Source: Escherichia coli
GTDB lineage: Bacteria; Pseudomonadota; Gammaproteobacteria; Enterobacterales; Enterobacteriaceae
DNA length: 24,028 nt
Reading direction: 5' to 3' (one strand)
NCBI RefSeq assembly: GCF_003334305.1
Contig: NZ_QOWS01000037.1
Both the position numbers and the translations under genes were made by a program. Below the pieces are notes generated by a model. That model did not search any database. It was given only the letters and a program-made list of their open reading frames with translations, and was not told where the DNA came from. This document shows, in pieces, positions 2,850 to 2,930 of the stretch. The stretch's first letter is position 1. Every line of letters begins with the position of its first letter.

Positions 2850-2908
2850 ACCGCTTACGATGCGAGGCGGATCGAAAAATTCAATATTCATCACACTTTT
2901 CATGAAAA

Positions 2909-2930
2909 TTCTGTAACCGTTTTCACGCGC
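2909..2930 (+). promoter_or_regulatory. Candidate CRP site in the cytR promoter region
   Basis: TGTAA-N6-TCACG at 2912-2927 resembles the CRP consensus TGTGA-N6-TCACA; lies ~80-95 bp upstream of the cytR start. cytR is known to be CRP-dependent and autoregulated. Confidence 0.4.

Follow-up and report, generated by a model that had tools for sequence, protein, structure and literature searches.

A palindrome in the Escherichia coli cytR promoter as a likely part of the known CytR operator

cytR and the known CytR-regulated promoters

The closest described system is the cytRP complex of Escherichia coli K-12 (Gerlach, Valentin-Hansen and Bremer 1990; Pedersen et al. 1992), which represents the same locus as the one analyzed here, with one base different. 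According to Sernova and Gelfand 2012 (PMC3454398), cytR is the sole member of its regulon with a single CRP site, which is located distally and is followed by two CytR half-sites. The CytR site is described there as an imperfect direct repeat with a 1-bp spacer that is conserved in 16 Enterobacteriales and had formerly been assumed to be an imperfect inverted repeat, and the CytR operator is required to lie no more than approximately 5 nt from the CRP operator. The one CRP site, the adjacent CytR site, the autoregulation and probably also the 1-bp-spaced direct-repeat half-sites summarized for K-12 cytRP (PMC3454398) are shared by the present locus, and nothing demonstrably different was found in the window, i.e. 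the whole stretch of 24,028 nucleotides of E. coli DNA that was analyzed. The element is already known: the cytR promoter was characterized in 1990-1992 and is curated in RegulonDB.

Promoters of the CRP-CytR-CRP type, such as tsx-p2, deoP2, udp, nupG and cdd, resemble cytRP in having the CytR operator beside a CRP site and in CRP-dependent binding of CytR. However, published accounts give cytRP a single CRP site, and the second CRP-like site present there is weak (3.5 bits), not conserved and would be positioned at approximately -32, overlapping the -35 region, instead of at -41.5. The two CRP-like sites of Escherichia cytRP have centres 32 bp from each other and cores separated by 16 bp, which is close to the approximately 14 bp described for tsx. 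Class I promoters of the lac type, with CRP at -61.5, are similar to cytRP in that the only CRP site precedes the -10 hexamer by about 50-51 bp, the -35 is weak or missing, and the DNA from the CRP site to the -35 region is A/T-rich. In cytRP, however, CRP would be placed 1-3 bp further upstream, the predicted -10 is of the extended TGn type, and the DNA between CRP and the -35 region probably also serves as the operator of a repressor. CytR is a LacI-family protein, and the perfect 12-bp palindrome of the E. coli sequence is reminiscent of the palindromic operators of LacI/GalR regulators (lacO, purR boxes). In contrast to these, the cytR palindrome has no central CG, its dyad symmetry is not conserved, and CytR half-sites are loosely spaced octamers in direct or inverted orientation.

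The palindrome is located in the 155-bp spacer between priA and cytR, which is followed on the + strand by ftsN and hslVU (Table 1). Apart from one base at position 2856 the spacer is identical to that of E. coli K-12 MG1655, which agrees with the original prediction that this region is the cytR promoter. The bases are exactly as that prediction had given them: the palindrome is identical to its own reverse complement, and TGTAA (2912-2916), CCGTTT and TCACG (2923-2927) are present downstream of it. The two elements directly abut, as had been claimed, if the CRP-like site is taken as its 22-mer, but not if it is taken as the 16-bp core, from which the palindrome is separated by TTC (2909-2911).

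Table 1. Coordinates of genes and sequence elements in the window.
Feature	Position	Strand	Remarks
priA	579-2849	+	stop codon 2847-2849
CRP binding site AAATTCAATATTCATCACACTT (probable)	2877-2898		core TTCAA-N6-TCACA 2880-2895, centre 2887.5
CytR operator region CACACTTTTCATGAAAATTCTGTAACCGTT	2892-2921		30-mer from RegulonDB CytR matrix
Palindrome TTTTCATGAAAA	2897-2908		T-tract, CATG, A-tract inside CytR operator region
Putative CytR half-sites CATGAAAA, t, TCTGTAAC	2901-2908 and 2910-2917		direct repeat, TGAAA and TGTAA cores
CRP-like TGTAA-N6-TCACG	2912-2927		centre 2919.5; 22-mer 2909-2930
Predicted extended -10 TG-n-TAAAAA(T)	2935-2944	+	from conservation pattern
Shine-Dalgarno GAGGAG	2995-3000	+	invariant in orthologs
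cytR GTG start codon	3005-3007	+	MG1655 annotation, conserved
cytR	3005-4030	+	start GTG per MG1655 annotation

The built-in scan found no intrinsic terminator on the + strand between priA and cytR, so that priA transcripts may run on into cytR. The stricter built-in promoter scan reported no promoter in 2780-3060, and no Rfam family matched the priA-cytR region. The longest cytR open reading frame begins with a GTG at 2999, whereas the annotated and conserved start is the GTG at 3005, 4 nt past the invariant GAGGAG; several genera have TTG instead of GTG at this position. The invariant part of the spacer also spells a mini-ORF of four codons (ATG AAA ATT CTG TAA, 2902-2916; MKIL*), which was rejected as a leader peptide as it has no preceding Shine-Dalgarno sequence and is probably meaningless. 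The CATG at the centre of the palindrome supplies the ATG of a spurious antisense ORF of 195 amino acids (2316-2903, - strand). A role of the palindrome as a hairpin or terminator was likewise rejected, since a 6-bp A/T stem without a loop is unable to form.

Conservation of the spacer and position of the CRP site

The region upstream of cytR was aligned for 80 cytR loci of Enterobacteriaceae (one genome per species, 200 nt upstream of the start codon), covering Escherichia, Salmonella, Citrobacter, Klebsiella, Raoultella, Enterobacter, Kosakonia, Kluyvera, Siccibacter, Shimwellia and other genera. Identities refer to the window sequence and were calculated for the 74 orthologs among the 80 that are not from Escherichia. 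Besides the Shine-Dalgarno sequence, three blocks are conserved in the 80 loci, located at 2861-2884, 2889-2917 and 2929-2946. None of the loci has an indel across 2865-2946; all indels occur downstream of 2947. Of the two variable stretches, 2918-2928 and 2947-2991, only the latter contains indels. The block 2889-2917, which reads C.TCACA.TTTT.ATGAAAATTCTGTAAC, shows 94% identity, and ATGAAAATTCTGTAAC itself (2902-2917) reaches 98%; the corresponding values are 82% for the final 42 coding nt of priA and 38-41% for the adjoining spacers. Within this block, and counted over the 80 loci, TCAC (2891-2894) is invariant, A2895 is conserved in 89%, and the columns of TTTT.ATGAAAATTCTGTAAC range from 87 to 100% with the exception of the central '.' position. 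The conserved unit is not a symmetric one, but the asymmetric TCACA-n-TTTT-n-ATGAAAATTCTGTAAC (2891-2917). The palindrome and the CRP-like core, each taken alone, are not rarer than chance: four perfect 12-bp palindromes occur in the window, compared to 7.4 +/- 2.8 in dinucleotide-preserving shuffles, and ten matches to TGTGA-N6-TCACA with at most two mismatches, compared to 9.6 +/- 3.4 expected. The non-random property of the region is its conservation, not the bare palindrome or the CRP-like match.

The CRP sites were scored with a symmetrised matrix that has the textbook consensus AAATGTGATCTAGATCACATTT and was compiled from 18 classical sites; its scores are approximate. With this matrix AAATTCAATATTCATCACACTT obtained 12.8 bits and ranked first among 24,007 window positions. 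Its equivalent is the best CRP-like site in 68 of the 80 orthologous upstream regions, with a median of 11.6 bits. Mendoza-Vargas 2009 (PMC2760140), who scanned -400 to +200 around start sites with RegulonDB matrices, reported CRP D -199..-176 AAAAATTCAATATTCATCACACTT with a score of 10.44, and this sequence is identical to positions 2875-2898 of the window. These matches suggest that AAATTCAATATTCATCACACTT is probably the single activating CRP site of cytRP.

The original prediction had instead assigned CRP to TGTAA-N6-TCACG, downstream of the palindrome. The core of this site matches eight of the ten consensus positions, but its 22-mer scores only 3.5 bits (rank 82 of 24,007), and the corresponding position in the orthologs has a median of -1.65 bits. 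Positive scores are found mainly in Escherichia (3.5-8.3) and Salmonella (5.3) and in a few loci of the Enterobacter group. The site lies inside the region scanned by Mendoza-Vargas 2009, but is absent among the CRP hits of the RegulonDB matrix, all of which score at least 10. The two halves of the site differ in conservation among the non-Escherichia orthologs: TGTAA is present in 100%, TCACG in 33%. This indicates that TGTAA is kept as part of the upstream block and not as a CRP half-site. At best, TGTAA-N6-TCACG is a secondary CRP site of low strength that only Escherichia and Salmonella possess. The case shows that a match of eight out of ten core consensus positions led to what is probably the wrong CRP site, whereas a full matrix combined with phylogenetic footprinting led to the conserved one. 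In the supplement of the CRP ChIP-exo study of Latif 2018, cytR is listed as a transcription unit.

The CytR operator and the symmetry of the palindrome

The RegulonDB matrix for CytR has 30 columns and is based on 11 curated sites. Supplementary file 6 of Mendoza-Vargas 2009 (PMC2760140) contains the entry CytR R -182..-153 AACGGTTACAGAATTTTCATGAAAAGTGTG with a score of 13.84, and this sequence is the reverse complement of positions 2892-2921 of the window. In the published scan the score at cytR exceeds that of the experimentally defined udp operator (13.14), and three of the five CytR-matrix hits are located at known CytR-regulated promoters, i.e. udp, ppiA/yhfC and cytR. Presumably the 30-mer 2892-2921 corresponds to the CytR site curated for cytRP, or includes it, and was itself a training site of the matrix. 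In the same publication the sites of the cytR promoter are filed under the entry 'priA|b3935|-25'. Both sites map to a scan origin at window position 3074, which corresponds to a 'TSS' 25 nt past the priA stop codon rather than 25 nt ahead of the priA start, and the start offset was thus evidently put on the wrong end of a minus-strand gene; the position convention was checked with the CRP site of tnaC, which stands at -61.5 in Mendoza-Vargas 2009.

The arrangement of the operator follows the published description of the site. The last base of the CRP core is 2895; the palindrome begins at 2897, and the first proposed octamer follows at 2901, after a gap of 5 nt. The putative half-sites CATGAAAA and TCTGTAAC, separated by a single t, fit the description by Sernova and Gelfand 2012 (PMC3454398) as a near-invariant direct repeat with a 1-bp spacer located 5 nt past the CRP core. 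Plausibly, the older reading as an inverted repeat referred to the same palindrome. Compared to the octamer consensus AATGCAAC/GTTGCATT, the two half-sites match five of eight positions each, and 53 such pairs are present in the window. When octamer pairs in any arrangement are counted, the intergenic region contains 4 compared to 5.2 expected, which is at chance level. Matching to the octamer consensus is without discriminating power, which agrees with the weak intrinsic specificity that has been reported for CytR.

The dyad symmetry of the palindrome behaves differently from the sequence that contains it. The central base 2901 is a C in only 35% of the non-Escherichia orthologs, where T, G and A also occur, whereas its dyad partner 2904 is a G in 100%. 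No compensatory change was found at the pair 2901/2904 among these 74 orthologs, only 17 of which retain a perfect palindrome; the sequence seen most frequently is TTTTTATGAAAA. The dyad symmetry is not a constrained property, but an accident of a variable central base in E. coli. A reading of the palindrome as a true dyad TTTTCA/TGAAAA for another dimeric helix-turn-helix regulator could refer to the perfect symmetry in Escherichia and in the 17 other orthologs and to the complementarity of at least 86% that five of the six symmetric base pairs show across the orthologs. This reading is very improbable, as at the central pair 2901/2904 complementarity drops to 35%, without compensatory changes, and as conservation extends asymmetrically, into ATTCTGTAAC on one side and into TCACAC on the other. 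Furthermore, such palindromes are not enriched in the window, and full-text searches with the exact sequence of the palindrome retrieved no relevant paper. The same holds for the sequences of both CRP-like sites and of the -10 region.

A further reading assigns the conservation of the T- and A-tracts to activation. The stretch TTTTnATGAAAATT might mainly serve, instead of or besides CytR binding, as a docking site for the C-terminal domain of the alpha subunit, similar to an UP element. It is established that at class I promoters this domain binds the A/T-rich minor groove just downstream of CRP, and TTTT-N4-AAAA, which is A/T-rich and would be located at approximately -55 to -44, resembles the TTTT-N3-AAA core of the UP consensus. 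The weak specificity of CytR also makes a conservation of 98% surprising for CytR binding alone. However, the alpha C-terminal domain is tolerant of sequence, so that near-invariant G2904, C2911 and TGTAAC would not be expected, the register deviates from the UP consensus by 4-5 bp, and the RegulonDB CytR matrix gives a high score to the 30-mer. Docking as the main function is therefore possible but doubtful. It is compatible with the CytR operator and does not exclude it.

Taken together with the conservation of the block, the position and the matrix match argue that the dyad most likely belongs to the CytR operator already described for the autoregulated class I cytR promoter. The original prediction had named the dyad region as a candidate CytR operator. 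This is corroborated by its position adjoining a CRP site, its near-invariance and a RegulonDB CytR match scoring above udp. The matrix scans did find CytR on 2892-2921 but placed the best CRP site upstream of the palindrome, on the side opposite to the one predicted, and the symmetry that had drawn attention to the dyad turned out to be irrelevant. The alternative suggestion that the dyad provides the context of a second CRP half-site found no support.

Promoter geometry and proposed mechanism of regulation

Downstream of the operator the conservation pattern points to an extended -10 element. In the 80-locus alignment TCTG is invariant, the 'n' position 2937 is variable and TAAAA is conserved in 79-100%. 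The distance between TGTAAC and this element is 21 nt in 72 of the 80 orthologs, whereas the distance between TGTAAC and the Shine-Dalgarno sequence varies from 58 to 84 nt. This places all length variation in the presumed 5' UTR. Based on this -10, transcription would start near 2950-2952 (approximately MG1655 4124509-4124511). The CRP site would then be centred at approximately -62.5 to -64.5, the palindrome would cover approximately -55 to -44, and TGTAAC approximately -40 to -35. Gerlach in 1990 and Pedersen in 1992 reportedly located the one CRP site of cytRP near -64, in agreement with a CRP centre at 2887.5 and a start near 2951-2952. SMRT-Cappable-seq detected one cytR promoter, the same as previously annotated, with transcripts that reach into ftsN. 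The conserved block (a)CTATCTGnTAAAAATGT (2929-2946), which represents the predicted extended -10 block, also has a reverse complement, TATCAGATAGTTA, that fits the IHF consensus WATCAR-N4-TTR in most other genera; E. coli departs from it at 2929 and 2937.

Two other promoter arrangements were considered. A simple sigma-70 scoring model is ambiguous in the A/T-rich cytR promoter region, and in 30 of the 80 orthologs its top pair uses the right arm of the palindrome as -10 (GAAAAT, 2904-2909, with A at -11 and T at -7) together with TTCAAT (2880-2885) as -35, which would result in a start at approximately 2916. Such matches are frequent in A/T-rich DNA, the stricter scan was empty across 2780-3060, and published data indicate a single cytR promoter. 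As this arrangement also leaves the invariant TCACA in its spacer and the invariant TGTAAC at its start unexplained, it is very unlikely.

The second arrangement builds on the CRP-like site of the original prediction; CRP would act at TTCTGTAACCGTTTTCACGCGC, with a +1 at approximately MG1655 4124477. CRP would be functional at 2919.5, the promoter would consist of TTGCCG (2946) and TGTAGT (2970) with an 18-bp spacer and a start at approximately 2983, and the palindrome would be a distal CytR operator or have another role. Besides the eight consensus positions matched by the core, this geometry can claim the top pair of the E. coli intergenic region in the simple sigma-70 model. It also has a class I-like distance of 50.5 bp between the CRP centre and the -10, again near -64 but 32 bp further downstream, and the site exists in K-12, the strain of the experiments. 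The CRP-like site is offset by approximately -32 from the start predicted by the extended -10, but by approximately -63 from that of the TTGCCG/TGTAGT pair. However, the right half of the CRP site, the -35 and the -10 are restricted to Escherichia, whereas the upstream blocks are invariant even within Escherichia. TGTAGT is without the near-essential A at -11, and genera with a TGTAAC to Shine-Dalgarno distance of 58-61 nt have no room for such a promoter. The site obtains 3.5 bits, and the RegulonDB CRP matrix reports 2877-2898 but not 2912-2927. In addition, a CytR operator upstream of CRP contradicts the published order and would leave the promoter-proximal CRP subunit unmasked. This geometry is therefore considered unlikely. 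The Escherichia-specific pair TTGCCG-18-TGTAGT (2946-2975) is as far from the CRP-like site (50.5 bp) as the conserved extended -10 is from the conserved CRP site, and it could be either a coincidence or a minor second promoter.

The conserved TTCAA-N6-TCACA site and the Escherichia-specific site might also act together. Escherichia, and weakly Salmonella, may have gained a low-affinity second CRP site, with CytR sandwiched between two CRP dimers as in tsx-p2 or deoP2, or an extra factor may stand behind the conservation of 2861-2917; this proposal is tentative and rather improbable. If true, the sandwich would contradict the textbook view, according to which cytRP alone among the CytR-regulated promoters has a single CRP site. 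Directly after the priA stop codon, TGCGA-GGCGGA-TCGAA (2861-2876) resembles the core TGCGA-N6-TCGCA of the Sxy-dependent 'CRP-S' sites, which is said to have been described by Cameron and Redfield in 2006. The element contains a Dam site (GATC, 2870-2873), scores 8.4 bits with the approximate CRP matrix and is centred at 2868.5, 19 bp from the main CRP site. Its GGATCGAAAAA is present in nearly all loci, whereas the Enterobacter cloacae group lacks the TGCGA half; the element may be a candidate target of an additional factor. A direct repeat, AATGTTGC-c-GATGTGAA (2942-2958), spans the predicted start. In Siccibacter and Shimwellia its counterpart is a near-consensus CRP site, e.g. AAATGTGAGCAATGTCAGACAT, with 16-17 bits, located 63 bp downstream of the main CRP site, compared to 3.5 bits in E. 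coli. It may be a CRP site that acts in repression in particular lineages, or else another target of CytR.

Overall, we consider it likely that the palindrome is the upstream part of the CytR operator of cytRP and that cytRP is a class I CRP-dependent promoter. The following mechanism is adopted from established work on CytR/CRP promoters. cAMP-CRP would bind to AAATTCAATATTCATCACACTT, approximately 63 bp upstream of the predicted start, and would activate transcription via the alpha C-terminal domain of RNA polymerase. A CytR dimer would occupy TTTTCATGAAAATTCTGTAAC directly downstream of CRP, probably through the TGAAA and TGTAA half-sites, which are of the TGnAA type. Binding of CytR would be cooperative with CRP, and the contact between the two proteins would block activation (anti-activation). 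Between CRP and the -35 region, CytR would take up the position that class I activation requires for the alpha C-terminal domain, and cytidine would relieve the block.

The cytR promoter is a classic, experimentally dissected case of CRP-dependent anti-activation, and the present finding is of use for little more than clean annotation, in that the palindrome does not merit an entry as a new dyad operator. Conservation of the operator block ATGAAAATTCTGTAAC exceeds that of the adjacent coding sequence, which is notable given the reported weak specificity of CytR.
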